Origin: Acidimicrobiia bacterium
Lineage (GTDB): Bacteria > Actinomycetota > Acidimicrobiia > IMCC26256 > JBBRZM01
DNA: 64,000 bases
Reading direction: 5' to 3'
NCBI GenBank assembly: GCA_038236695.1
Contig: JBBRZM010000003.1
Coordinates: forward strand, 42,476-106,475
Positions 9,747-43,941 of this stretch are shown one piece after another. The first letter of the stretch is position 1. Each line of letters starts with the position of its first letter. Both the position numbers and the translations under genes were made by a program. The notes under the pieces were generated by a model. That model saw only the letters and a list, made by a program, of their open reading frames with translations, was not told the origin of the DNA and ran no database searches.

Positions 9747-9940
9747 CCTGCACCGGAGACAAAAACCGGACATGAATGGCGCAATCCCGGCGCCACGGTC
9801 TAGCGTCTTTCACATCGCCCGCACGTGACCTCTGAGGTTGACGTACGGGCATGTTGTTAGAAGGCACTACTGAAGAGCACTGTTCGCAGGACCGCGTTCA
9901 GCAAGGACCGACAGCGGCATCCGCCAAAGGGAGTCCCCAC

Positions 9941-11038
9941 ATGAACCTCCGGGCCGCACGGCTCGTTCCCATACTCATCGTCGGCCTCGCCGCGCCCGCT
10001 GTCGTCGCCGCCAGCGCGCAGGCATCACCGGTCGACGACAAGCGCGCCCAGGCGCAGCGCCTGCAGGCGGAGATCTCCGCCAACGGCCAGAAGACCGACG
10101 CCCTCAGCGAGCAGTACAACGGCGCCCAGCTCAAGCTCGGCGACGCCAAGCACGCGGTTGCCGCCGCCCAGACCCAGATCGCGACCGCGGAGAAGCGAAC
10201 CCGTCAGTCGAAGAAGTTGCTCGCCGCCCGGGCCGCGTCGATTTACATCAGCTCCGGGGTGGCGAACGGCATCGCGGTGCTCGACGCCGACAACGCCAGC
10301 GACATCAATGCTCGGGAGAAGTACTCGTCGGCCGCGGCAAGCCGCGACGACATGCTCATTCAGCGGTTGCGCGACGCGAAGGACGAGCTCGCACAGAAGC
10401 AAGCCGATGCCGAGCAGGCGCAACAAGCCGCGCAGCACGACGCGGAGGCGATCTCGAGCTCGAAGCGCCAGCTCGACGCCGCGAACGCGAAGCAGCAGCA
10501 GCTGCTCAGTCAAGTCAACGGCGAGATCAAGACCCTCGTCGCGGAAGCGGCGCGCCAGCAGGCGCTGGCCGAGGCCGCGGCGGCGCAGAGACGTTTCGCA
10601 GCGGGCGCCACCGCGCGGGCGACGACGAGCCGTGGGGGTGGTCGCGGCGCTGCGCCCTCGATCGCCTATCCCGACAACCTCCCCTCACCGAACGGCGGCG
10701 CGGCGGCTGCGATCGCGTTCGCCCGGGCCCAGCTGGGCAAGCCGTACCAGTACGCGGCCACCGGGCCCGACTCGTTCGACTGTTCCGGTCTGACGATGCG
10801 AGCGTGGGAAGCGGGCGGTGTCTCGATGCCGCATTACTCCGGCGCGCAGTACGACATGTTCCCGAAGGTTCCCCTCGACCAGCTGCAACCGGGTGACCTG
10901 GTGTTTCGAGGAGCCGGTGGCAGCGCGCACGTCGCGCTGTACATCGGCGGGGGGTTGGTGATCACCGCGCCCCAGACCGGTGACGTGGTCAAAGTTGCCG
11001 GAATCGGCAGCGTAATGGGCGCAGTTCGACCTGGTTAG
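9941..11038 (+). CDS. Secreted coiled-coil + NlpC/P60 peptidoglycan endopeptidase (RipA-like)
   Basis: Internal ATG 9941 gives the signal peptide MNLRAARLVPILIVGLAAPAVVAASAQA. Long Gln/Ala-rich coiled coil follows. C-terminal NlpC/P60 domain (DCSGLTMRAW..., HVALYIGG). Confidence 0.85.
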   Translation: MNLRAARLVPILIVGLAAPAVVAASAQASPVDDKRAQAQRLQAEISANGQKTDALSEQYNGAQLKLGDAKHAVAAAQTQIATAEKRTRQSKKLLAARAASIYISSGVANGIAVLDADNASDINAREKYSSAAASRDDMLIQRLRDAKDELAQKQADAEQAQQAAQHDAEAISSSKRQLDAANAKQQQLLSQVNGEIKTLVAEAARQQALAEAAAAQRRFAAGATARATTSRGGGRGAAPSIAYPDNLPSPNGGAAAAIAFARAQLGKPYQYAATGPDSFDCSGLTMRAWEAGGVSMPHYSGAQYDMFPKVPLDQLQPGDLVFRGAGGSAHVALYIGGGLVITAPQTGDVVKVAGIGSVMGAVRPG

Positions 11039-11122: not shown

Positions 11123-12232
11123 ATGATGATGATTCGTAGGACCCTACGTGTTGTTCCATGTGTCGCCGCGATGTTGGGCGCGCTGTTGGCGCCGGTCGTG
11201 ACGGGATCGAGTGCCGCGCACGCGTCGCCGATTGACGACAAGAAGGCCCAGGCCGCCCGGCTCCAGGCCGAGATCGATCAGAACGGCGTCAAACAAGACG
11301 CGCTGTCGGAGCGCCTCAACGGCGCGACCTACCGGCTCCAGCAGGCCCAGGCCGACGCCGTCCGTGCCCAGAAGGGTCTCGACGCGGCGGAAGCCCACAC
11401 GAAGCAGCTGCAGCATCAGCTCGCGGAGCGTGCCGCCGCGGTGTATCGCAGCGCGGGCAACGGTGGCCTCGACGCGCTCGACGCCTCGAGCGCGGGCGAG
11501 CTGTCGACCCGCGAGCAGTACAGCGCCGCGGCCGCAAATCACGACGACAACATCGTGCAGCAGCTCCACGACGCGAAGGAACAGCTGCAAGCGAAGCGGA
11601 GCGACGCCGAGACGGCGAGCAGCGCGGCACAGACCGAACGCGACCAGGCAGCCTCGGCCAAGAAGGAGCTGCAAGCGGCGAGCGGCAAACAGGAGCAGTT
11701 GCTGTCGCAGGTCAATGGCAAGATCAAGCAGCTCATCGACGAGCAGCGCGCCCGTGAAGCCGCGGCGACACTCGCAGCCGCGCAGGCGCGCGCGTCGGCT
11801 TCCAAGAACGCCCGCCCGATCAGCGGCCGCGTCAGCACCAGCGGCGACATCCAGATCGACCTCGGTTCGATTCCCGCGCCGAGCGCGGGAGCCGGCGCGG
11901 CAATCTCGTTCGCATACGCACAGCTCGGCAAGCCGTACGTGTACGGCGCGGCCGGGCCCGACGCATACGACTGCTCGGGGCTCACCATGCGGGCCTGGGA
12001 GGCGGCGGGTGTCTCGATGCCGCACTACTCCGGCGCGCAGTACAACGCGTTCCCGCATGTGCCGCTCGACGCGATGCAGCCGGGCGACCTCGTGTTCTGG
12101 GGTCCCGGGGGTAGCAGCCACGAAGGGCTCTACATCGGCGGCGGCATGATGATCGCGGCGCCGCACACCGGCGACCACGTGAAGGTGCAGGCCGTCTACG
12201 GCGGAGCGATCGGCGCATCGCGTCCCGGTTGA
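11123..12232 (+). CDS. Secreted coiled-coil + NlpC/P60 endopeptidase, tandem paralogue (RipB/RipA-like)
   Basis: 369-aa track ORF with signal peptide and coiled coil. C-terminal domain is near-identical in motif order to the upstream gene (YDCSGLTMRAWEAAGVSMPHYSGAQY, HEGLYIGG). Confidence 0.85.
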   Translation: MMMIRRTLRVVPCVAAMLGALLAPVVTGSSAAHASPIDDKKAQAARLQAEIDQNGVKQDALSERLNGATYRLQQAQADAVRAQKGLDAAEAHTKQLQHQLAERAAAVYRSAGNGGLDALDASSAGELSTREQYSAAAANHDDNIVQQLHDAKEQLQAKRSDAETASSAAQTERDQAASAKKELQAASGKQEQLLSQVNGKIKQLIDEQRAREAAATLAAAQARASASKNARPISGRVSTSGDIQIDLGSIPAPSAGAGAAISFAYAQLGKPYVYGAAGPDAYDCSGLTMRAWEAAGVSMPHYSGAQYNAFPHVPLDAMQPGDLVFWGPGGSSHEGLYIGGGMMIAAPHTGDHVKVQAVYGGAIGASRPG

Positions 12233-12290: not shown

Positions 12291-13361
12291 GTGACCACCA
12301 CAGAGTCCATTCGGCTCACGCGCTTCTCGCACGGCGCGGGCTGCGCGTGCAAGCTCTCACCCGACGACCTTCGTACCGTGCTGGGGCTCGTACGTGACCT
12401 CGAGCCCGCCCCCGACACCGACCTGCTCGTCGGCCTCGATACCGCCGATGACGCCGCCGTCTACCGGCTGCGTGACGATCTCGCCATCGTCTTCACCACC
12501 GACTTCTTCACGCCGATCGTGGACGACCCCTACGACTGGGGCCGCATCGCCGCTGCCAACGCGCTGTCCGACGTGTACGCGATGGGTGGCGCGCCGCTGC
12601 TTGCGCTCAACCTCGTCGCCTGGCCTAGGGAAGGCCTGCCGTTCGAGCTACTCGCGCGCGTGATCGACGGCGGTACCGACGTCGTGCGCGCCGCCGGGGC
12701 GATCGTCGGCGGCGGTCATTCCATCGACGATACGGAGCCGAAGTACGGACTCGCGGTGGTCGGTACTGTCAACCCGGCACGCGTGTGGCGTAATCGCGGT
12801 GCTCGGGTGGGTGACGCGCTGGTGCTGACGAAACCGATCGGGCTCGGAGTCATTTCGACTGCATTGAAACGTGACGCGGCCTCCCCCGAGCTCATCCGGC
12901 GGGCCGTCGACGTGATGACAACGCTCAACGCTTCGGCGCGTGACGCCGCGCTCGAGCTGGGCGACGCAGTGCACGCGGTCACCGACGTGACCGGCTTCGG
13001 GCTGCTCGGTCATCTCCGAGAGATGCTGGTCGCGTCGAATGTGGCGGGCGAGATCGATTTCGCGTCGGTGCCGGTGATCGACGGCGTCCGTCAGCTGATC
13101 GCCGCGGGCATGGTCGCGGGCGGCACACAGCGTAATCATTCCTTCGTCAGCGACACCGTCGATTGGGGCGAGCTTCCGTCCGACGAGCAGCTGCTGCTCG
13201 CCGATGCCCAGACCTCAGGCGGGCTGCTGATTGCGGTCGAGCGCGCGCATGCGGACGAGCTCGTGCACGCACTCGAGCAACGGGCGACGCTCGCTACAGC
13301 CGTGGTGGGGCGAGTTGCCGCCGGCGTGGCCGGTCACGTCACGATCGTGGCCGCTGCTTAG
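12291..13361 (+). CDS. selD: Selenide, water dikinase SelD (Cys form)
   Basis: GTG-start 356-aa ORF. N-terminal [18 protein letters not shown] matches the SelD glycine-rich loop with Cys, not Sec. AIR-synthase-like fold follows. Confidence 0.9.
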
Positions 13362-14356
13362 GGGATCACGAGCATGCCCAGCTCCGACTCGAGCTGCGGC
13401 CGCGGTTTCGCGCCCAGCGACTGACGCTCGAGCCGTCCGTCGCGAAAGAGACCGATCAGCGGGATGCTCTGGACGTCGTAGGTCTGTGCGAGGGCGGGCT
13501 CTTCGTCGATGTTGACCTTCACCACTTTGTACGAGCCGTCTCGCATCGCTGCGATCTGCTCGACGATCGGACCGACCTGACGGCACGGACCGCACCACGG
13601 AGCCCAGAAGTCGACGATTACCGGTATGTCGCTCTTCAGCACCTCGGCATCAAACGACGCGGTGGTCACCGACCGCACGAGGCCTTCGGGCGGATCTTCG
13701 GGAACGGGCGCCGCGGGACGTTCGCCCGAGCGGACCGCGTCGAGCCATTTGTTGGCCTCCTGCACGCCTTCGAGTGCCACTTGGTGCGCCATCGGGTACT
13801 CCGTGTACACGACGGGAATGTCGTGCGCCTCGAGGGCGCGGGCCAGCTCGCGGCCGCGCTTCACCGGTATCAACGGATCTTCCGAACCGTGCTGCACGAG
13901 AAACGGCATGTTGCGCGCGGCGTCCCAGTCAAAGTCGAGTCCCGGGTATTCGGCGAGAAAACCGCTCATCACGAGCGCGCCCGCCGGACGCGTGCGGTCG
14001 CTCGCGCGGAGTGCCAGCGCGGCGGCCAGGCTCGCACCCTGGGAGAAACCGGCCACGACGGCCTGCTCGCGCGCCATGTCGTGCTCGCGGCAGGTGTCGT
14101 CGAGCAGTTCATCGAGCGCATCCAGAGAGGCGATGAACTGTTCGACGCTCGTGTCGGAGTCGGCGCCGAAGTCGTACCAGGCGAACCCGGGCGGTGCCGC
14201 GACCGGTCCGCGTGGCAGGACGGTGAGGAAGCGGCCATCGGGATCGAGGTAGGGCAGCAGCTCGCCGAGGTCGCGTTCGTCGGCGCCGAAGCCGTGGACG
14301 AGCAGCAGCACGCGGTCGGCATCGCTGCCGTGCACGACATTGGTCACGAGCGTCAT
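13358..14356 (-). CDS. Fusion: phospholipase/carboxylesterase-type alpha/beta hydrolase + C-terminal thioredoxin
   Basis: 332-aa track ORF. N-terminal esterase part with GFSQGA nucleophile elbow and [10 protein letters not shown]-terminal 105 aa are a classical thioredoxin ([16 protein letters not shown]). The 3' end overlaps the selD 3' end by 4 nt. Confidence 0.8.
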
Positions 14357-14434: not shown

Positions 14435-14992
14435 TCAGGGGGACTTGCGGTGGCGGCGGCGCCGAGGCTGGGCCCGCCGCGCCGGGATCTTCACATCGGT
14501 GCGCTGCACGTCGGCTGTCTTCTGCACGATGCTGATCGAGCCGTCGGGCTCGAGCACCGCCATCTTGATCTTCGAGAGGCCGGTGCTCGGGTCTTCACCG
14601 TGTTCGCGCAACGCCGTCTCCACCTCGTCTTGGGTGACGCCGGCCATACGCAGGTGCGACTGGATGAATTGACCGTCGTGCACGAGCAGGATCGGATCCC
14701 CTTCGACGAGGCCGCGCACGAAACGGCTCCGCAGCCGGGTGCGCGCGATGATCGCGTTGGCGACGAGCAACGTGGCCGCGGCCACGAGGCCGCCTTCGAG
14801 CGTCACGTCGGGGCCAACCATCGCGTTCTGTACCGCGTTGGCGACGAGCAGGATCACCACGAGGTCGAACGGGGTGAGCTGCCCGAGCTCGCGCCGGCCG
14901 CCGAGGCGCAGCCCGGCCAGGACCGCCACGTACACCGCGAGAGAGCGACCGACGATCTCGAGCAATCGCACGCCGAGACGGTACCCGCACAC
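14435..14992 (-). CDS. DUF421 (YetF-like) membrane protein
   Basis: C-terminal 185 aa of track ORF 14435-15553. [30 protein letters not shown] is typical of DUF421. GTG at 14992 chosen as start; GTG at 14971 is equally possible. Confidence 0.65.
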
Positions 14993-15067
14993 TCCGGGTG
15001 CACACGCGTCACTCGACCCGCTGATGACGACGCGCGAGCATGCCGCGCCGCCACCACGGAGGACGCG

Positions 15068-16108
15068 ATGCGACTCGGGATCAACCTCGGCTACCAGGAC
15101 TGGGGCGCGGGCCTCGACCGGGCCGTCTCCCTCGCGCAGGAGGCCGAGCGGCTCGGCTTCCACTCGGCGTGGACGGCCGAGGCGTACGGCAGCGATGCGA
15201 TCACACCGATCGCGTGGCTCATGGCGCGCACCGAGCGCATCACGTTCGGCTCCGCGATCATGCAGATGCCGGCGCGCACCCCGGCGATGACGGCGATGAC
15301 CGCGGCCACGCTCGATCTGATGAGCGGCGGCCGCTTCCTGCTCGGGCTCGGGCTGTCGGGCCCGCAGGTCGTCGAAGGATGGCACGGCCAGCGCTACGGC
15401 AAGCCGCTGGTGAAGACGCGCGAGTACGTCGAGATCGTGCGTTCCATCCTGCGCCGCGAGGCGCCACTCGAGCACCACGGCGAGCACTACGACATCCCGT
15501 ACTCGGGCGACGGCGCGACCGGCTTGGGCAAGCCGCTGAAGCTGATCGTGCATCCGCGCCGCGCTGACCTCCCGATCTATCTCGCCGCGATTGGCCCGAA
15601 GAACGTGCAGCTGAGCGCCGAGATCGCAGACGGCTGGCTGCCGATCTTCTTCTCACCGACACGTTTCGCCGACACCTACGGCGCCGCGGTCGAGGCCGGA
15701 TTCGCTCGAGCTGGTGCAGCAAAGAGCCTCGACAACTTCGACGTCGCGCCCACCGTCACGGTCATCGTCGGCGACGACGTCGAGACGCTCCGCGGCCTCG
15801 CGAAGCCGATGACCGCGCTGTACATCGGCGGTATGGGCGCGCGGGGAAAGAACTTCTACAACGACCTCGCGTGCCGGTACGGGTTCGAGGCCGAGGCGAA
15901 GCAGATCCAGGACCTCTATCTCGACGGCAAGAAGCAGGAGGCGATCGCCGCGGTGCCCGATGAGCTGATCGACGAGATCTCGCTCATCGGTCCGAAGGCG
16001 CGCATCGCGGACCGGCTCGAGGCGTGGAAGAGCTCCGGGATCACCACCATGATCCTCGGCGCGCAACAGCCAGAGGCACTGCAGGTGATGGCCGAACTGC
16101 TGCTCTGA
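15068..16108 (+). CDS. LLM-class (luciferase-like) probable F420-dependent oxidoreductase
   Basis: In-frame ATG 15068 within the 981-aa track [50 protein letters not shown] is a typical LLM N-terminus. Confidence 0.85.
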
Positions 16109-16215
16109 CCGTCGAGCCGGTCAGCGAGGATAGCTCCGAGAATGTCTCCCACGGTGGAGAGCATGCGCTTCATCTATACGGTCCGCACCGGCCGGGGCCT
16201 TGTCGCGCGCCTAGC

Positions 16216-17100
16216 ATGGTCGCGATGCGCCGGATCATCGTTCTGCTGACCGTGCTTGCGTTCGCCGCCGTCGGGCTCGTGGCCTGTAAACCGCCGCCGC
16301 CGCCGGTGTGCGGCAACGCCGGGGCCGCGCCCGTGCTCTACACGAGCGTCGTCGTGTTCTCGTTCGAGAACCGCACCTGGTCCGGCGTGGGCGGCACGCA
16401 GTTCCAGTCGATGCCGTACCTGAACGGCTTGGCGAAGCTGTGCTCGACGTTCTCCAACTACACCGAGCCCGACACGTCGCAGAACAGCGCGACGCAGTAC
16501 GTCGGCACGTTGCAAGGCTCGACGAACAACAGCGTTCTGAACGACTGCTCCCCGTCGGCGTCGTGCCAGTCGACCGCGGACAACCTGTACCGGCAGGCCC
16601 GCGCCGCGGGTATCGGCTCCCACGAGTACCACGAAGGCGCGTCGTCGGCGTGCTCCGTCGGGTCGGGGAACGCGGTGAAACACGAACCGTGGTTCTACTA
16701 CCGGGGTGGCACCGACCAGGCGACCTGCGGCTCGGACGTCCTGCCGTTCACGTCGTTCGACCCGTCGAACCCGCCCGCGGGGTTCTCGTTCATCACCCCC
16801 ACGCTCTGTAACGATGGGCACGACTGCTCGAACAGCACCGTCGACGCGTGGGCGCAGACGCACGTCCAGCCGGTCCTCAACTCCGCGGCGTACAAGGCGG
16901 GCCACGTGGCGGTGTTTGTCTGGTACGACGAGGACCGCCCAGTCCCGAACATGCAACTCACCCCGACCGCGACGGCTGGCCCGCATGCCCTGGCGGTCAC
17001 GTACGGGTCGTCACTCGCGGCGTGGGAGTCGATGCTCGGCCTCGCGTGCCTCGCGAATGCGTGCACGGCCCCGAACATGCGCACGGCCGCGAACCTCTGA
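16216..17100 (+). CDS. Lipoprotein, phosphoesterase-family (AcpA/PLC-like) protein
   Basis: Internal ATG 16216 gives a signal peptide with lipobox LVAC. Motifs FSFENR, ITPTLCNDGHDCS resemble the phosphoesterase family. Confidence 0.65.
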   Translation: MVAMRRIIVLLTVLAFAAVGLVACKPPPPPVCGNAGAAPVLYTSVVVFSFENRTWSGVGGTQFQSMPYLNGLAKLCSTFSNYTEPDTSQNSATQYVGTLQGSTNNSVLNDCSPSASCQSTADNLYRQARAAGIGSHEYHEGASSACSVGSGNAVKHEPWFYYRGGTDQATCGSDVLPFTSFDPSNPPAGFSFITPTLCNDGHDCSNSTVDAWAQTHVQPVLNSAAYKAGHVAVFVWYDEDRPVPNMQLTPTATAGPHALAVTYGSSLAAWESMLGLACLANACTAPNMRTAANL

Positions 17101-30170: not shown

Positions 30171-31616
30171 CTAGCCCTCGACCGTCGGAGCGGCCGACGC
30201 TACGGCCCGGGCGGCACGCCCGCCATGGCTGTGTTCGCACGAAGATCGAGCGTGTGCCGCAACGCCGGTCGCACGAGGATCGAGCGTGTGCCGCAACGCC
30301 GGTCGCACGATGAGCACGAAGGCCACGCCCAACAGCACGCAACCGGCTCCGACAAGTGTGGTGCGCACACCGATCTGGTCGGCGAGCATCCCTTGGAGCA
30401 ACGCGCCGAGCGGAATACCCGCGGTGATCGCCATGGTGTAGAGCGAGAGCACCCGTCCCCGGTACTGCTCGGCCACGCTCAACTGGATCGACGTGTTGGC
30501 CGCGCTCACAGCCATGAGGTACGCCACACCGAGCACGAACATCCCGATTGCTGCCGCGAGGTAGGCGGGCGAGAGGCCGACGCCGATGAGACCCAACCCG
30601 TACAGCACTACCGCCGACGTCGCGAGCTGCGATCGGCGAACGCCGTCGGCGTAGCCACTCACGAACATGGCGCCCATGACGCCGCCGGCGCCGAACGCGG
30701 CGACGATCACTGCGTACGCGTCGCCGGACTCTCCCAGGGAGCGCCGCGCCAGCACAACCGAGAGCTGGAGCACCGGTGCGCCGAAGAACGCGACGCAGCC
30801 GGCGAGCAGCACGGCAACGAGGAGCCCGGTGTGACGCCGCGCGTAGGCGAGGCTGTCGCGGAACTGCCGCCAGACACGATCGCCGGACGCCGTCGTCAAC
30901 TGCTCGGGCGCGCGGATCAACAACAGCGCCACGATTACCGTGCCGAACGACACTGCGTTGAGCAGAAACGCCCTCGACGCGCCGAACTGCGTGAGCACCA
31001 CGCCACCCAGCGCCGGACCCACCGCGCGCGACGCGTTGAACTGGGCCGAGTTGAGGGTGATCGCGTTGAGCAGCTCGTGCTTCGGCGCGAGCTGGGGCAC
31101 GAAGGCCTGCCACGCCGGAAGGCTGAAGCCCACCGAGATACCGGTGAGCGAGACGAGCGCGCACGTCGTCCACGGGCTCGCGTGGCCGTCGGCCCACACC
31201 GCCCAGAGCGCGAGTGCGGCGACGGTACCGAGCAGGGTGGCGAGCAGCAATGTCCACTTGCGGGAGAATCGATCCGCGCACACACCGCCGAGGGGCGCGA
31301 CGACAACGGCGGGGATGAACTGGGCGAACACGCCGAAGCCGACCCATGTGGCCGAGTGAGTGGTCTGGTAGAGCACGTACGGCACCGTGACGTTCTGCAT
31401 CCACGAACCGGAGTTCGACACGAACGCCCCTGCCGTGAACAGGGCAAAGTCGCGGTGTCGTAGCGAACGGAACGCGTGACGCAGGCCCCGACCGCCGGGT
31501 GTGCCGGGCGTGTCGACGTCGGCCCCGGCCAGCGCCGTGACGAAACCGGCTTCGGCCGAGCGATGCGCTTCGCCGTCGAGCCCGCGCTCGCCTCGAGGCT
31601 CGTGCGGCACTGACAT
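30171..31616 (-). CDS. MFS transporter (EntS/MFS_3-like)
   Basis: 481-aa track ORF with 12 TM helices. The 3' end runs through a 34-bp tandem duplication. Confidence 0.8.
   Translation of the reverse strand: MSVPHEPRGERGLDGEAHRSAEAGFVTALAGADVDTPGTPGGRGLRHAFRSLRHRDFALFTAGAFVSNSGSWMQNVTVPYVLYQTTHSATWVGFGVFAQFIPAVVVAPLGGVCADRFSRKWTLLLATLLGTVAALALWAVWADGHASPWTTCALVSLTGISVGFSLPAWQAFVPQLAPKHELLNAITLNSAQFNASRAVGPALGGVVLTQFGASRAFLLNAVSFGTVIVALLLIRAPEQLTTASGDRVWRQFRDSLAYARRHTGLLVAVLLAGCVAFFGAPVLQLSVVLARRSLGESGDAYAVIVAAFGAGGVMGAMFVSGYADGVRRSQLATSAVVLYGLGLIGVGLSPAYLAAAIGMFVLGVAYLMAVSAANTSIQLSVAEQYRGRVLSLYTMAITAGIPLGALLQGMLADQIGVRTTLVGAGCVLLGVAFVLIVRPALRHTLDPRATGVAAHARSSCEHSHGGRAARAVASAAPTVEG
30244..30311. 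repeat. Direct tandem duplication, 2 x 34 bp
   Basis: GATCGAGCGTGTGCCGCAACGCCGGTCGCACGA(G/T) at 30244-30277 and 30278-30311, differing at 1 position. A partial third match (tcgcacgaa) lies immediately upstream. Confidence 0.9.
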
Positions 31617-31725
31617 GGTCCTGCGACCCTACCCGCGGCCACGTTTCGCGACGCTTGCTGCGGTTCGCACGACGGGCTCCACGCCAAGGTTTGCATCCCG
31701 GACGCGGATGCGGTTTGCTGCCGGG

Positions 31726-32676
31726 ATGCCCGAACGGGCGACCGACGGTTCGCCGCCCACGATCGACATCACGACGAGACCTGAAGTCGACGACGCCACT
31801 CTCGCGGCGCAGACCGCTCCGACCAGCAGCGCGCTCGTACCGATTCATCCGGCCGATGAGCGGGCCCCCGATCTCGACGACCGTGCGATTCGAAAAGGCG
31901 ACGTCGACGCATGGGGCCGCAGCGAGCGCGTGCGCGAGGTCGCCCGAAGGATCTACGACCCGATCTACCGGCACTATTTCCGCGCCGAGTGGGAAGGCCT
32001 CGAGCACATCCCCCAAACCGGAGGCGCCCTGCTGGTGGCCAACCACGCGGGCGCGATCCCGTCCGATGCGCCGGTGATCATGCACGGCATCGAGACGGAG
32101 CTGCATCGCCCGGTCTACGGCCTCGCCGAATACCTCTTCCGCGCGCTGCCGGTGATCGGCACGCTCTGGGCGCGCGCCGGAGGTGTACCCGCGCACCCCG
32201 ACAACGCGTACCGGCTCCTGCATGACGACGCGCAGCTCGCGCTTGTGTTCCCCGAGGGAGAAAAAGGTACGGGCAAGCTCTACCGCGACCGCTACAAGCT
32301 CAATCGCTTCGGACGGGCAGGGTTCGTCGAGATCGCGATGCGCTCGGGCGTGCCGATCGTCCCCATCGCCGTGGTCGGCGCGGAAGAGTCGATGCCGATC
32401 CTGTTCAAGAGCAAGCGGATCGCGAAGCTGCTCAACGTTCCCTACGTGCCGATCACCGCCAACCACCTGCTCTTCGGGCCGCTGCTCGGCACCGCGCTCT
32501 ATTTCCCGGCCAAGTTCAAGCTGCGGGTGCTTCCGCCGGTCCACTTCGGCGTACCGCCCGACCAGGAGCGTTACTCGCGCAGCCGCGTCATGGAAGAAGC
32601 CGACCGGATCCGCGAGCAACTCCAAACGGCGCTCTACGACATGCTGCGATCGCGTCGTAGCGTGTGGTTCGGCTGA
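31726..32676 (+). CDS. Lysophospholipid (1-acyl-sn-glycerol-3-phosphate-type) acyltransferase family protein
   Basis: Track ORF 31501-32676. HxxxxD box as LVANHAGAIPSD, and FPEGEKGTGK. Start uncertain (ATG at 31615, 31708 or 31726). Confidence 0.7.
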   Translation: MPERATDGSPPTIDITTRPEVDDATLAAQTAPTSSALVPIHPADERAPDLDDRAIRKGDVDAWGRSERVREVARRIYDPIYRHYFRAEWEGLEHIPQTGGALLVANHAGAIPSDAPVIMHGIETELHRPVYGLAEYLFRALPVIGTLWARAGGVPAHPDNAYRLLHDDAQLALVFPEGEKGTGKLYRDRYKLNRFGRAGFVEIAMRSGVPIVPIAVVGAEESMPILFKSKRIAKLLNVPYVPITANHLLFGPLLGTALYFPAKFKLRVLPPVHFGVPPDQERYSRSRVMEEADRIREQLQTALYDMLRSRRSVWFG

Positions 32677-41285: not shown

Positions 41286-42353
41286 CTACTCGCCGCTCGA
41301 CGACGGCACGCCGTAGGCCGGCCGACCGGCTGCTTCCCACTCCTGGTAGAAGTCGAAGAACGCATTGCCGAACGGATCGACTCCCCGCAGCGGCATCGAT
41401 CCGCGCCGGATCGTCCAGTCCATCGGCGCGAGCGCGGCGGCACGGTCGAAGTGTCGTTCGGCCGCCTCCGACCGTGCGGCGCGCAGCAAGTGCGCGGCGA
41501 GCCGCCGCTCCACGCGTCCTTGCTGTTCGTCGGGTGACGGCGCCAGTTGCCGGGCGCGCGCGCCGTCGGCGTCGAACGCGAGCTCGTCGTGGTCGACCCA
41601 ACGTCGCAGCGCGTCGTGGTGTATCGAGGAGTCGATCTTCGTGAACTCCTTGAAGGTGTCATCACCGGGTGTGATATCGGGCGGGCGGACGATGCGATCG
41701 TGCTCGTCGATCCACACGGTGCTCGGCACGTTGATGATGCCGTACCGCTCGGCCACGACGAACTCTCGATCGAGCAGCACGGGATACGTGGGCCGCGGGT
41801 CGGCGGCGTCGACCCATTCACGCGCCGAGTCAGCCGACTCGTCGAGTGCGACCGCGATGATCGTGAGGCCGGCGGGAGCCAGCTCCTCGTGCAAGCCCTG
41901 CCAGACCGGCAGGTCGTAGCGGCATCCTCACCACGAGGCCCAGGCGAGCAACAACTTCTTTCGCCCCTTGAAGTCGGCGAGCGAGACGAAGTTGCCGTCG
42001 AGGTCGGGCAAGGTGAAAGGCGGCGCGTCGAGCGACGCCATCTCCGCAGAGCGCACCTCGGCCGGTGTGCCGAGCACCGCGACTGTGGGCTGCTTGTCAT
42101 CGCCGGGCTCAGAGGCAAACGGGAGGCGCAGCGCGTGCGCGAATGCTTCGAGGTCGATGCCCCCATCGGACGCGACGAGAGCGGCACGGTCGGCCACGGG
42201 CACGCACACGTCGTCGCGGCACAGCCCCTCAAGCTTGAGCACCCAACCGGTCGCGCGCGCGAGATCGTCGGCCGCGACAAGCACGCGCTCGCCATCGATG
42301 CTCGCGCTCAGCTCGTAGATCGTGTCGTCGGTGACGAGCTCGAGCGTGCTCAT
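41286..42353 (-). CDS. Thioredoxin-fold redoxin (ResA/TlpA-like), candidate selenoprotein with UGA-encoded Sec at 41928-41930
   Basis: Track ORFs 41928-42419 and 41286-41894 share a frame. They are separated only by TGA and 11 sense codons. The joined sequence reads [30 protein letters not shown] 42351-42353 forms an ATGA overlap with the upstream SDR stop. Confidence 0.7.
41897..41930 (-). promoter_or_regulatory. UGA plus candidate SECIS hairpin
   Basis: UGA, then 14 nt, then CCUGCC-GGUCU-GGCAGG (41913-41897). 6-bp stem, apical loop containing GGUC as in the E. coli fdhF SECIS. Confidence 0.5.
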
Positions 42354-43114
42354 GCGCGCCGCTCGATTCGGCGGAGGTTGGACCACACGAGCCGGGGTGC
42401 GAACCGGCGGAGCCGCCACACGAGGCGACTCCCCGGGCCCGGGAACACGAAGAGATCACCGCGCTCGATACCGGCCTCGATCGCGTCGAGCACGGCAGTC
42501 GCGCTGATCGACTTCACGTGCTGAAAGAGCTGCACCCCGGCGAGTTGGTCGAGCATCGGCGTGTCGACCGCCGGCGGGCAGACGCACACGAACCGCACGC
42601 CCGAGTCGGCGTGCTCGAACGCGAGCACCTCGCTGAACGCGACGACGGCGAACTTGCTCGCGTTGTACGCGCCGAGCTTTGGCACCGGTATCCATCCCGC
42701 CAGCGACGCGAAGTTGATCAGGTCGCCCGCGCCCCGCTCGACCATGCCGGGCAGTGCGGCTTTCGTGACGTTGACCGTGCCGCCGTAGTTGACCGCCATG
42801 ACCCGCAGGATCTCCTCGGCCGACTGCTCGAGCAGCGCGCCCGCCGGTGCAATGCCGGCGGCGTTGACCACCCGGTCGATGGGGCCGATGTCGTCTTCGA
42901 CGCGCTTGACGACGAGGGAAACGGCTTCGGCATCCGTGACGTCACATGGGTAGGCGGTAATGGTCGGCGCGCGCATGCTCGTGGCCGCGAGGCCGCGGTC
43001 ATCGATGTCGACCGCTGCGACCGTCGCGCCCTGCGCCGCGAGGTGACGGGCCATGAGCTGACCCAAGCCACTGGCCGCGCCCGTCACGAGGGCGATATTT
43101 CCGCTGTACGCCAT
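42350..43114 (-). CDS. SDR-family oxidoreductase
   Basis: 254-aa track ORF. TGAASGLG, Y-x3-K (YNASK). Directly abuts the upstream gene (43115). Confidence 0.85.
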   Translation of the reverse strand: MAYSGNIALVTGAASGLGQLMARHLAAQGATVAAVDIDDRGLAATSMRAPTITAYPCDVTDAEAVSLVVKRVEDDIGPIDRVVNAAGIAPAGALLEQSAEEILRVMAVNYGGTVNVTKAALPGMVERGAGDLINFASLAGWIPVPKLGAYNASKFAVVAFSEVLAFEHADSGVRFVCVCPPAVDTPMLDQLAGVQLFQHVKSISATAVLDAIEAGIERGDLFVFPGPGSRLVWRLRRFAPRLVWSNLRRIERRA

Positions 43115-43813
43115 TCAGACCACCTCGGCCGCGTCGAAGGTGGCGCGCATCGTATCGATCGATCCGCTCGTGAATGCGCGCTTGGGGAGGCCCAGCGCGC
43201 GCAGCTCTTTGGCCATCGGGTGATCACCGAGCACGAGGGTGGCGCCACCGGGCCGCATACGTGTGCCCGACCCGTCGATCGCCCAGGGTGTGCGGCGGGT
43301 CACACCGTCGAGACATGAGTACGCATCGACGCTCGAACCCTTGGACGGCACCGGCACACCGCGACTGAGGCTCAACGTGAGGACATGCTCGCCTTCATGG
43401 CGGAGCGTGCACGTGGCGACGCGTCCGCGGGTCTCGATCGCGATGTCGGCCATCCACTTCGGAAAACCCCACATCGTGCGGCCGACCTCGAGCGTGAACG
43501 ACTGGTTGACCGGCAGTTGATGGATGAACGCCGCGCCGATCTTCGAGCGGCGACCGCGCCGACTGGCCGGACGTACGAGCACCGCCACTGCGACCTCGTG
43601 GTACGGGCCGAGATCGGAGTCGAAGTACCGCACGAAGCCGAGGCTGACGAACGCTCGACCGGGAAGCGGCTGGGTCACCTCCAAGCCCGAGTAGTCGATG
43701 AGGTCCTGGGCCGCGGCGGCGTCGACGACGAACGTCGCGAACCACGCGTTGGCGTCACGCACCCGCACCGGCACGGTGACTTCATGGCCCTGGATCTCGA
43801 TCGCGGAGCTCAT
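43115..43813 (-). CDS. Acetoacetate decarboxylase-family (ADC-fold) protein
   Basis: Internal ATG 43813. The pattern ...VRYFDSDLGPYHEVAVAVLV... GRTMWGFPKW resembles the ADC family. This is pattern recognition only. Confidence 0.5.
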   Translation of the reverse strand: MSSAIEIQGHEVTVPVRVRDANAWFATFVVDAAAAQDLIDYSGLEVTQPLPGRAFVSLGFVRYFDSDLGPYHEVAVAVLVRPASRRGRRSKIGAAFIHQLPVNQSFTLEVGRTMWGFPKWMADIAIETRGRVATCTLRHEGEHVLTLSLSRGVPVPSKGSSVDAYSCLDGVTRRTPWAIDGSGTRMRPGGATLVLGDHPMAKELRALGLPKRAFTSGSIDTMRATFDAAEVV

Positions 43814-43941
43814 CAGAAGCAGTACAACACCGATCGAGGCACGGGGACCAATGGCGCCACCATCGGTTCGTCGGCCGCTCCCCACGCGTCGACGATCACG
43901 ACGTCGGCCTCCAGCAACACCGATCGCCCAAACGGTGGGAA

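Follow-up and report, generated by a model that had tools for sequence, protein, structure and literature searches.

A very probable selenoprotein gene of the UGC-containing Prx-like/TlpA-like ("WAxxUGC") family in an Acidimicrobiia bacterium

The minus strand of an Acidimicrobiia bacterium carries, at positions 41286-42353 of the window (the whole stretch of DNA that was analyzed, 64 kb in length), what is in all likelihood one selenoprotein gene of the UGC-containing Prx-like/TlpA-like ("WAxxUGC") family. With the same high confidence, which applies to the two statements jointly, the product is a soluble thioredoxin-fold oxidoreductase of 355 residues and three domains. Judged from sequence comparisons, the in-frame UGA of this gene almost certainly encodes selenocysteine (Sec). 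The coordinates of all features are given in Table 1.

A previous sequence-only reading of the window had proposed that two open reading frames (ORFs) of the minus strand, 41928-42419 and 41286-41894, are the halves of a single redoxin gene. Indeed, the two share one frame with the TGA at 41930-41928 as the sole interruption, 11 sense codons lie between this TGA and the TTG at 41894, and the joined translation from the ATG at 42353 has the 355 amino acids that had been quoted. GC3 is of the coding type in both halves (0.81 and 0.85). A coding signal on both sides was sought at each in-frame TGA of the window and found at four sites, of which the one at 41930 was the sole Sec candidate: the TGA at 43117 is an ordinary stop with the ATG of the next gene immediately after it, and a protein-like continuation was absent at both 14437 and 6091. 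TGA is the usual stop, ending 21 of the 31 other genes of the window, and the genome is therefore not a recoded one. The upstream gene encodes an SDR oxidoreductase; its TGA stop overlaps the start of the selenoprotein gene (ATGA), and thus the two are probably cotranscribed.

Table 1. Features of the selenoprotein locus and of selD in the 64-kb window
Feature	Position	Strand	Details
Predicted selenoprotein CDS	41286..42353	minus	355 codons + TAG; ATG 42353 to TAG 41288-41286; three domains
N-terminal domain, ~100 aa	42054..42353	minus	invariant G-x-C-x4-C-x-P; C45 42221-42219, C50 42206-42204
Thioredoxin-fold (AhpC-TSA/Redoxin) domain, residues 109-221	41691..42029	minus	cis-Pro loop N-V-P (P210)
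C-terminal all-helical domain, residues ~236-355	41289..41648	minus	helices only past residue 231 (DSSP, model)
In-frame UGA, predicted Sec residue 142	41928..41930	minus	motif W-A-S-W-U-G-C-R
Cys144, presumed resolving Cys of the U-G-C redox center	41922..41924	minus	invariant in 99 Sec-forms + 180 Cys-forms
Predicted SECIS hairpin, 17 nt	41897..41913	minus	6-bp stem, 5-nt loop, 14 nt after UGA
Hairpin parts	5' arm CCUGCC 41913-41908; loop GGUCU 41907-41903; 3' arm GGCAGG 41902-41897	minus	
SDR oxidoreductase gene, upstream	42350..43114	minus	NCBIfam SDR hits; same order in close strains
selD (selenide, water dikinase)	12291..13361	plus	TIGR00476 405.5 bits (cutoff 125); NF002098 405.2 bits (cutoff 299)

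The TGA had been placed at the position of the redox-active cysteine, and the homologues agree with this. Of the best-scoring 120, 119 are single uninterrupted proteins, nearly all of 316 to 375 amino acids and spanning both halves, and all 119 full-length proteins have Cys at the TGA column, in the motif W[AS]xW-C-G-C-R. Among the observations that had been named as speaking against a joined gene were homologues that terminate at the tryptophan or have a gap or a non-redox residue at the UGA column, and halves that occur as separate conserved genes. Every full-length homologue ran on through Cys at this column, and the halves were never found as separate genes.

The TGA form proved to be widespread: a TGA-specific DNA pattern scan of GTDB species genomes matched at least 120 species from many phyla. 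All 120 matches listed are true family members, with roughly 120 to 180 open codons upstream and 205 to 260 downstream of the TGA, and those listed come from Acidimicrobiia, Chloroflexota, Acidobacteriota, and Delta-, Alpha-, Beta-, and Gammaproteobacteria. The residues G-C-R that follow the UGA are invariant in the 120 listed genomes, and their codons vary synonymously (in the listed matches, Gly is GGC in 59, GGG in 29, GGA in 28, and GGT in 5, and Cys is TGC in 97 and TGT in 24).

A hairpin resembling a selenocysteine insertion sequence (SECIS) had been claimed downstream of the UGA. CCUGCC-GGUCU-GGCAGG is in fact present at 41913-41897, with a 6-bp stem and a start 14 nt past the UGA, and its nucleotides belong to the codons for D-L-P-V-W-Q-G. 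The bSECIS model calls for a stem of 4 to 16 bp, a loop of 3 to 9 nt of the form N1-G-[G|U]-N-N2, a UGA-to-loop spacing of 16 to 37 nt, and a minimum free energy (MFE) of -7.5 kcal/mol or below (PMC13188914). The hairpin is SECIS-like in each of these respects (6 bp; GGUCU; loop 20 nt from the UGA; -11.6 kcal/mol). In isolation, its MFE corresponds to a z score of -2.45, with 5 of 200 shuffled sequences folding equally well; the L-P-x-W-Q motif and a GC-rich genome alone tend to yield much of the stem. The fold of the whole region was unexceptional (z = -1.1), and no SECIS-type Rfam family was found, either in the whole window at the gathering threshold or in 41780-42000 at E <= 10, where sub-threshold chance hits were the only matches.

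In RNAalifold on 119 listed sequences, the hairpin was the sole consensus structure. Of its cells, 97.3% were paired. Double changes were seen in 39 cells, compared with 8.3 after shuffling, and none of 500 shuffles reached 39. In the listed Sec-forms, the closing pair is C-G (71), U-A (25), G-C (5), or U-G (3) and the second pair is C-G (100), U-G (10), or U-A (7). Of the listed Sec-forms, 100 of 119 have all six pairs intact, compared with 12 of 88 Cys-forms, and the Leu codon is NUG in 114 of 118 listed Sec-forms versus 44 of 74 Cys-forms. Conservation of such a hairpin and its loss upon change to a Cys codon are the signature expected of SelB-dependent decoding. The SECIS loop of Escherichia coli fdhF is GGUC, and like the fdhF element and the bSECIS model, the present hairpin lies in the coding region directly 3' of the UGA and has a small apical loop with an early G-[U/G]. 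Unlike in fdhF-type elements, the conserved part comprises 17 nt only, and neither a conserved lower stem nor a bulged U was detected. A longer lower stem was suggested by the single-sequence fold but was not conserved in the RNAalifold consensus, and we discarded it.

The product of selD is the selenium donor required for Sec-tRNA synthesis. The gene had been noted in the same window, and its identity is clear from a score of 405.5 bits with TIGR00476 at 12291-13361 on the plus strand (cutoff, 125 bits). tRNA-Sec was not found in the 64-kb window with ARAGORN, which gave tRNA-Leu and tRNA-Gln only, or with Rfam. When 30 additional large ORFs of the window were compared with NCBIfam models, selD was identified but no selA, selB, selU, or yqeB/yqeC. 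The DNA flanking 120 related Sec-form loci among the matches listed contained no tRNA-Sec gene either. If the UGA were read through by a near-cognate or suppressor tRNA as Trp, Cys, or Gly, selD would serve selenouridine or a selenium cofactor or would be an orphan. Orphan-selD genomes are indeed documented in Actinobacteria (PMC5029168), and the lack of selA, selB, and tRNA-Sec in the window fits such a case. However, the conserved hairpin agrees with the bSECIS model throughout and is lost together with the UGA when the codon is Cys, the column holds the redox Cys in all homologues, TGA serves as an ordinary stop in most genes of the window, and selU and yqeB/yqeC are absent among the window genes scanned. 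We therefore consider read-through with another amino acid improbable.

Alternatively, the gene could be a CGC redoxin of the Cys type that has become a pseudogene through a recent TGC-to-TGA nonsense mutation, or the TGA could stem from faulty sequencing or assembly; the downstream half would then go untranslated. TGC and TGA are one base apart, the nearest relatives by identity (~62%) are all Cys-forms, and the clade of the window protein comprises 10 Sec-forms and 134 Cys-forms. However, the TGA is found in at least five independently assembled strains of 97 to 99% identity, and five such assemblies (97.3 to 98.7% identity) retain the hairpin as well. Matches to the N-terminal fragment, at 97 to 99% DNA identity, came from an ENA metagenome contig of 548 kb, which carries a relative of 98% identity, and from several contigs of Logan; none of these is the window itself, and an exact look-up of the SelD protein of the window gave no match. 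Changes in close strains downstream of the UGA were synonymous and nonsynonymous at ratios of 10:1 and 11:2, and the region is thus under purifying selection. Moreover, the hairpin that most Cys-forms have lost is fully intact here, and the same TGA occurs in at least 120 other species. A pseudogene or an error is therefore very improbable. In a rough neighbor-joining tree of 279 sequences, at least 18 switches between Sec and Cys were counted.

Also very improbable are two separate genes, a 141-amino-acid protein ending at W141 and a 202-amino-acid protein starting from the TTG at 41894. This TTG is available 11 codons past the TGA, and automated gene callers have produced exactly these 141- and 202-residue pieces in assemblies from ENA and Logan, as the sequence-only reading had expected of standard ORF calling. 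However, none of the homologues consists of two conserved genes, and the uninterrupted ones span both halves. The 11 codons from the TGA to the TTG specify the invariant G-C-R...W-Q and vary synonymously in the 120 listed genomes, and, as that reading had also argued, the split would cut the thioredoxin fold one residue ahead of the active-site helix of the homologue model.

The evidence thus favors a single selenoprotein. The thioredoxin fold of the TlpA/ResA/AhpC-TSA type that had been assigned to it was recovered with PF00578 (63.5 bits; cutoff, 26 bits) and PF08534 (55.7 bits), and the model of a Cys homologue resembles DsbE, ResA, TlpA, and StoA. For the thioredoxin domain of this model, the top PDB entries were 3gl3 (DsbE) and 1su9/1st9 (ResA), at a TM score on the target of ~0.8 and 21 to 32% identity. 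No PDB entry matched the whole chain; the thioredoxin domain alone matched, with a TM score on the query of ~0.35. The N-terminal domain had no Pfam match but is covered by the NCBIfam profile NF041054; in the predicted model of a homologue it is mostly beta, with pLDDT values of 89 to 97, and its C45 and C50 are invariant across 279 family members. The C-terminal domain is the part most unlike the seed clades of NF041054. No hydrophobic segment was found in the protein, the maximal Kyte-Doolittle mean over 19 residues being 0.99, inside the thioredoxin domain, and the N terminus is acidic and polar. The family carries four invariant Cys/Sec residues.

With ResA, TlpA, DsbE (CcmG), and StoA, the protein shares the structure of the thioredoxin domain and the conserved cis-Pro loop. 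It differs from these proteins, which are membrane anchored or secreted, in that it lacks a hydrophobic segment, has extra domains at both the N and the C terminus, and has U-G-C (C-G-C in homologues) where those proteins use CxxC. The scores were below the cutoffs of the respective families (ResA NF002854, 65 of 170 bits; TlpA NF047696, 39 of 230 bits; DsbE TIGR00385, 27 of 123 bits). A peroxiredoxin of the AhpC/BCP type was also considered and rejected: U142 is preceded by L-L-A-W-A-S-W, which lacks the Pro at -7 and the Thr at -3 of the peroxidatic motif P-x-x-x-T/S-x-x-C, and the BCP model NF006960 gave 22.7 of 140 bits.

The sequence-only reading had pointed to a RefSeq family name built around a WAxxUGC motif, and this family exists: NF041054, "WAxxUGC_long," an equivalog for ResA-like WAxxUGC motif-containing proteins. 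The gene is in all probability a selenoprotein gene from an already catalogued family. The window protein has the W-A-S-W-U-G-C motif, a length of 355 amino acids against the 354 positions of the profile, the N-terminal domain followed by the thioredoxin domain, and the same domain order, but its C-terminal helical domain diverges. It scored 233.3 bits (E = 4.9e-69), under the curated cutoff of 300 bits, and aligned in two stretches, the better of which joined residues 25-227 to profile positions 7-200 of 354; the match was weak in the C-terminal third. The Acidimicrobiia-type Sec-forms that were scored (217 and 226 bits) and two Cys-forms (227.5 and 239.9 bits) likewise stayed below 300 bits, whereas a Sec-form from Chloroflexi reached 549 bits and one from Deltaproteobacteria 360 bits. 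These Chloroflexi and Deltaproteobacteria Sec-forms carry the same SECIS hairpin.

The family was earlier named "Prx-like (UGC-containing)" in a 2008 study of GOS data and "UGC-containing TlpA disulfide reductase" in a 2026 review; 46 Sec and 855 Cys sequences were counted in the GOS data, and the family was more abundant in nonmarine samples (PMC2398784; PMC13188914). The window protein shares with it the thioredoxin fold of the pfam00578/cd02966 type, the UGC motif, and the existence of many Cys homologues; the family was defined there by domain and motif only, with MDE0950781.1 as its representative (PMC2398784; PMC13188914), and the protein was matched to it on these features. A literature search under the name "WAxxUGC" found no paper. 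What the present analysis adds to these definitions of the family is its architecture of three domains, the CX4C that is invariant in the N-terminal domain, and an account of the SECIS.

In the selenoprotein that we propose, the hairpin 14 nt downstream of the UGA at 41930-41928 would recruit SelB.GTP.Sec-tRNASec, and selenocysteine would then go in instead of termination, with selD of the same window supplying the selenophosphate. Sec142 would occupy the position of the nucleophilic Cys at the N terminus of helix alpha1 and would cycle with Cys144 via a selenenylsulfide (U-G-C), which would make the protein a thiol/selenol-disulfide oxidoreductase. More speculatively, the protein may be a cytoplasmic enzyme of undescribed activity in which the N-terminal C-x4-C and the U-G-C together form an internal redox relay or bind a metal or a substrate, and the 17-nt SECIS within D-L-P-[V/G]-W-Q may offer a clean natural case of an RNA structure that freezes the protein sequence, with repeated Sec/Cys switches; this extended proposal is a possibility that we regard as rather unlikely. 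When the flanking ORFs (~3.5 kb) of 120 loci among the matches listed were clustered, no conserved gene neighborhood was found. The commonest neighbor was an SDR gene, yet it was present at only 9 of these loci, and a functional partner is therefore not given by the context.

The practical gain is a correction of annotation, since public gene calls in this lineage give fragments of 141 and 202 amino acids. Because the Acidimicrobiia clade misses the NF041054 cutoff, its genes will stay misannotated unless the cutoff is lowered or the seed alignment is widened. The finding adds an Acidimicrobiia-type lineage, in which Sec decoding is very probable, and provides an example of a SECIS that is very compact, lies within the coding region, and limits the peptide encoded there. 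A family that is widespread, has four invariant Cys/Sec residues, and is free of a conserved neighborhood would be a reasonable target for biochemical work.

According to the sequence-only reading, two minus-strand ORFs are one gene broken by a TGA. This layout was reproduced: a single frame runs through the TGA and encodes a joined protein of 355 residues with the TGA at position 142 (U142). Its ATG shares an ATGA overlap with the TGA stop of the upstream oxidoreductase (SDR) gene, and third-position GC is 0.81 and 0.85 in the two halves, the level of real genes in this window (68.6% GC). ORF calling splits the gene, as had been stated, and the same 141- and 202-aa calls recur in ENA and Logan assemblies (exact-protein look-ups). 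When every in-frame TGA in the window was scanned for a coding signal on both sides, four sites emerged. One is a normal stop followed directly by the ATG of the next gene, two were rejected since a protein-like continuation was absent, and only the site at 41930 looks like a recoding candidate. TGA is the normal stop in 21 of the 31 confidently identified genes of the window; therefore, the genetic code of this genome is not altered.

Table. Positions of the predicted selenoprotein gene, its elements, and other genes of the window
Feature	Position	Strand	Remark
Tandem paralogous NlpC/P60 (RipC-like) peptidoglycan hydrolase genes	9851-11038, 11123-12232	plus	directly upstream of selD
selD	12291-13361	plus	405 bits
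Esterase-like N-terminal half fused to thioredoxin domain	13358-14356	minus	TIGR01068, 102 bits, residues 231-326
Predicted selenoprotein gene	42353-41286	minus	one reading frame, ATG 42353 to TAG 41288-41286
C45 and C50, G-x-C-x4-C-x-P	42204-42221	minus	N-domain; invariant in 279 family members
In-frame TGA	41930-41928	minus	preceded by 141 sense codons
Hairpin CCUGCC-GGUCU-GGCAGG	41913-41897	minus	starts 14 nt after UGA
TTG taken as start by ORF callers	41894	minus	11 residues encoded between TGA and TTG; 202 further codons to TAG
SDR gene	42350-43114	minus	
Acetoacetate-decarboxylase-like gene	43115-43885	minus	PF06314 (ADC) in related contigs

The joined protein was searched against a collection of 5.8 billion proteins, and the best 120 of 714 matches were examined. 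One was a 202-aa C-terminal fragment from a near-identical strain; the other 119 were single uninterrupted proteins, nearly all of 316 to 375 aa with 51 to 63% identity, and the few with source labels were assigned to Acidimicrobiia or Acidimicrobiales. The motif W-[AS]-x-W-C-G-C-R was present in 119 of 119, and thus, a Cys aligns with the UGA. None of these homologues ended at the W or was split into separate genes, in line with the sequence-only reading.

Close strains argue against a pseudogene. The whole gene was found in five ENA/Logan assemblies with 97.3 to 98.7% DNA identity, and the TGA and an identical hairpin were present in all five. Synonymous and nonsynonymous differences from the window 3' of the UGA stand at 10:1 in one strain group and 11:2 in the other; the region past the "stop" is therefore under purifying selection. 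Window positions 31755-52357 are collinear with a 548-kb metagenome contig (L244; ENA ERZ1700618 contig_EHDLDABF_66938) at 98.1 to 98.9% identity and not identical to it, so that the window derives either from a close strain or from a different assembly of one and the same population.

GTDB species genomes were scanned at the DNA level for W-[AS]-x-x-TGA-G-C-R-x-[DE]-x3-W. At least 120 loci were obtained, and all 120 listed are true family members with TGA at the active-site column (Sec-forms), with, contig permitting, ~120 to 180 open codons upstream and 205 to 260 downstream. They come from Acidimicrobiia, other Actinomycetota, Chloroflexota, Acidobacteriota, Rokubacteria, Delta-, Alpha-, Beta-, and Gammaproteobacteria, and others. 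The G-C-R right after the UGA is invariant while its codons vary synonymously (GGC 59, GGG 29, GGA 28, GGT 5; TGC 97, TGT 24; six codons for Arg), which indicates that translation crosses the UGA. W-A-P-Y-U-G-C (TAT TGA) replaces W-A-S-W-U-G-C in Sec-forms L035, L044, L055, L097, L110, and L111, and locus L108 has W-A-S-F-U; thus, the "xx" in WAxxUGC is truly variable.

The SECIS-like hairpin proposed downstream of the UGA was recovered by RNAalifold as the sole structure, a 6-bp stem with a 5-nt loop, in a gap-free alignment (A1) of 119 distinct Sec-form sequences. Counted inward from the closing pair, the stem comprises C-G 71, U-A 25, G-C 5, and U-G 3 (pair 1); C-G 100, U-G 10, and U-A 7 (pair 2); U-A 117 and U-G 2 (pair 3); G-C 115 with two double changes, one C-G and one U-A (pair 4); C-G 106 and U-G 13 (pair 5); and C-G 119 (pair 6). 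Overall, 97.3% of the stem cells are paired. Two-sided changes occur in 39 cells; shuffling gave 8.3 ± 2.3, and none of the 500 shuffles reached 39. Pairing fell to 26 to 65% when the 3' partner was slid by 1 to 3 columns. All Sec-form sequences have the loop N-G-[U/G]-N-U. The Sec-form at L011:728-803(-) has CUC...GAG where others have CUG...CAG, a double compensatory change that also alters Gln to Glu, so that RNA pairing was retained at the expense of the peptide. The consensus bSECIS has a stem of 4 to 16 bp, a loop of 3 to 9 nt of the form N1-G-[G|U]-N-N2, a UGA-to-loop distance of 16 to 37 nt, and an MFE of ≤ -7.5 kcal/mol (PMC13188914, Fig. 2 legend). The window hairpin, with a 6-bp stem, loop GGUCU, 20-nt spacing, and -11.6 kcal/mol (folded alone; z = -2.45), agrees with all of these; in a 64-nt context, its fold is unexceptional (z = -1.1). 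We therefore regard this hairpin as a very probable SECIS.

The codons that make up the stem are D(3rd base)-L-P / W-Q-X(1st base). Since this peptide motif alone could generate the stem, we repeated the scan as a control on metagenome contigs, with TGY for TGA in the DNA pattern, and obtained 88 distinct true Cys-forms, i.e., members with a Cys codon at the column. All six pairs were present in 100 of 119 Sec-forms (the other 19 have five) versus 12 of 88 Cys-forms; the collections behind the two sets differ, the sequences are related by phylogeny, and both scans equally fixed the Trp codon from which two Gs of the stem derive. The Leu codon was NUG in 114 of 118 Sec-forms versus 44 of 74 Cys-forms (CUC in 27). 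The peptide after U/C-G-C-R-x is nearly fixed as D-L-[PS]-[VG]-W-Q in Sec-forms, whereas it drifts in Cys-forms (ELAGWQ, DLSGWR, DVKNWE, DLPAWE, and others). This contrast argues that the stem is selected only where the codon is UGA, freezing the encoded peptide. We consider it very likely that the UGA at 41930-41928 encodes Sec; the sequence-only reading of the split gene as a selenoprotein gene was right in observation and interpretation.

The suspicion that the family was already catalogued was borne out as well. It has been described as "Prx-like (UGC-containing)," a pfam00578 group with the motif UGC that counts 46 Sec and 855 Cys sequences in GOS and is more frequent in non-marine samples (PMC2398784), and as "UGC-containing TlpA disulfide reductase" in a 2026 review (PMC13188914). 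The top NCBIfam match of the joined protein was NF041054 ("WAxxUGC_long, ResA-like WAxxUGC motif-containing protein"; E = 4.9e-69). Its score of 233 bits is under the curated cutoff of 300, which places it outside the equivalog as curated; it clearly belongs to the homologous family. Sec-forms of Chloroflexi (L022), Deltaproteobacteria (L009), Acidobacteria, and Alphaproteobacteria scored 549, 360, 295, and 287 bits, those of the Acidimicrobiia type 217 and 226 bits, and the Cys-form homologues P0002 and P0024 227.5 and 239.9 bits. The window gene adds a new and unannotated member to a selenoprotein family that is already known, and its clade scores below the NCBIfam cutoff. In a rough NJ tree built from 279 sequences, the window protein groups in one clade with 10 Sec-forms and 134 Cys-forms, and at least 18 Sec/Cys switches are required overall, with biased sampling and a midpoint root, so that the tree does not fix their direction. 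The hairpin in common points to an old Sec that gave way to Cys repeatedly.

As had been noted, selD lies in the window. Genes for tRNA-Sec, selA, and selB were not found within the 64 kb or beside the gene at the 120 related Sec-form loci listed. Since genomes with an orphan selD exist (PMC5029168), the Sec machinery is the one open link in the argument. selD is convergent with the esterase-like/thioredoxin ORF, with a 4-bp overlap; no in-frame TGA was seen in the latter. The acetoacetate-decarboxylase-like gene, the SDR gene, and the selenoprotein gene follow one another in this order, an arrangement kept in close strains, and probably form one operon, as judged from the TGA-ATG junction and the ATGA overlap. 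The SDR gene is the commonest neighbor, yet it occurs in only 9 of the 120 listed related loci, and therefore, the neighborhood is uninformative on function. At the thresholds used, no NCBIfam match was obtained for the acetoacetate-decarboxylase-like gene or for ORFs 14435-15553(-), 16024-17100(+), and 31501-32676(+); some of these three may not be genuine genes.

Read with Cys in place of U, residues 109 to 222 of the joined protein matched Pfam AhpC-TSA at 63.5 bits and Redoxin at 55.7 bits. P0002, the nearest Cys homologue (62% identical), was modeled with AlphaFold on a 60-sequence alignment. The model had very high confidence (pLDDT 95.4, pTM 0.92) and falls into three parts: the first ~100 residues form a mostly-beta domain, a Trx fold comes next, and the C-terminal domain is all-helical. 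The Cys equivalent to U142 lies immediately ahead of the long helix after strand beta1, and the classical nucleophile position of Trx folds is directly before this helix. Foldseek against the PDB matched the Trx domain only, with DsbE (3gl3), ResA (1su9, 1st9), StoA, and TlpA as best matches (TM ~0.8 by target, ~0.35 by query). A hydrophobic segment is absent (the 19-residue Kyte-Doolittle mean peaks at 0.99), and the protein should therefore be cytoplasmic, unlike ResA and TlpA. Its only Cys/Sec positions are C45, C50, U142, and C144, and none of these four columns varies across 99 Sec-forms and 180 Cys-forms. The U-G-C center would run a selenenylsulfide/selenol-thiol cycle. The C45/C50 pair might serve as a second site for redox chemistry or metal binding; its participation in the U-G-C cycle is speculation.

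These data correct the annotation of a gene split by ORF callers and document a minimal, probable SECIS, specific to Sec-forms, that puts a constraint on the encoded peptide. The invariant N-terminal CX4C is a further feature of this protein.
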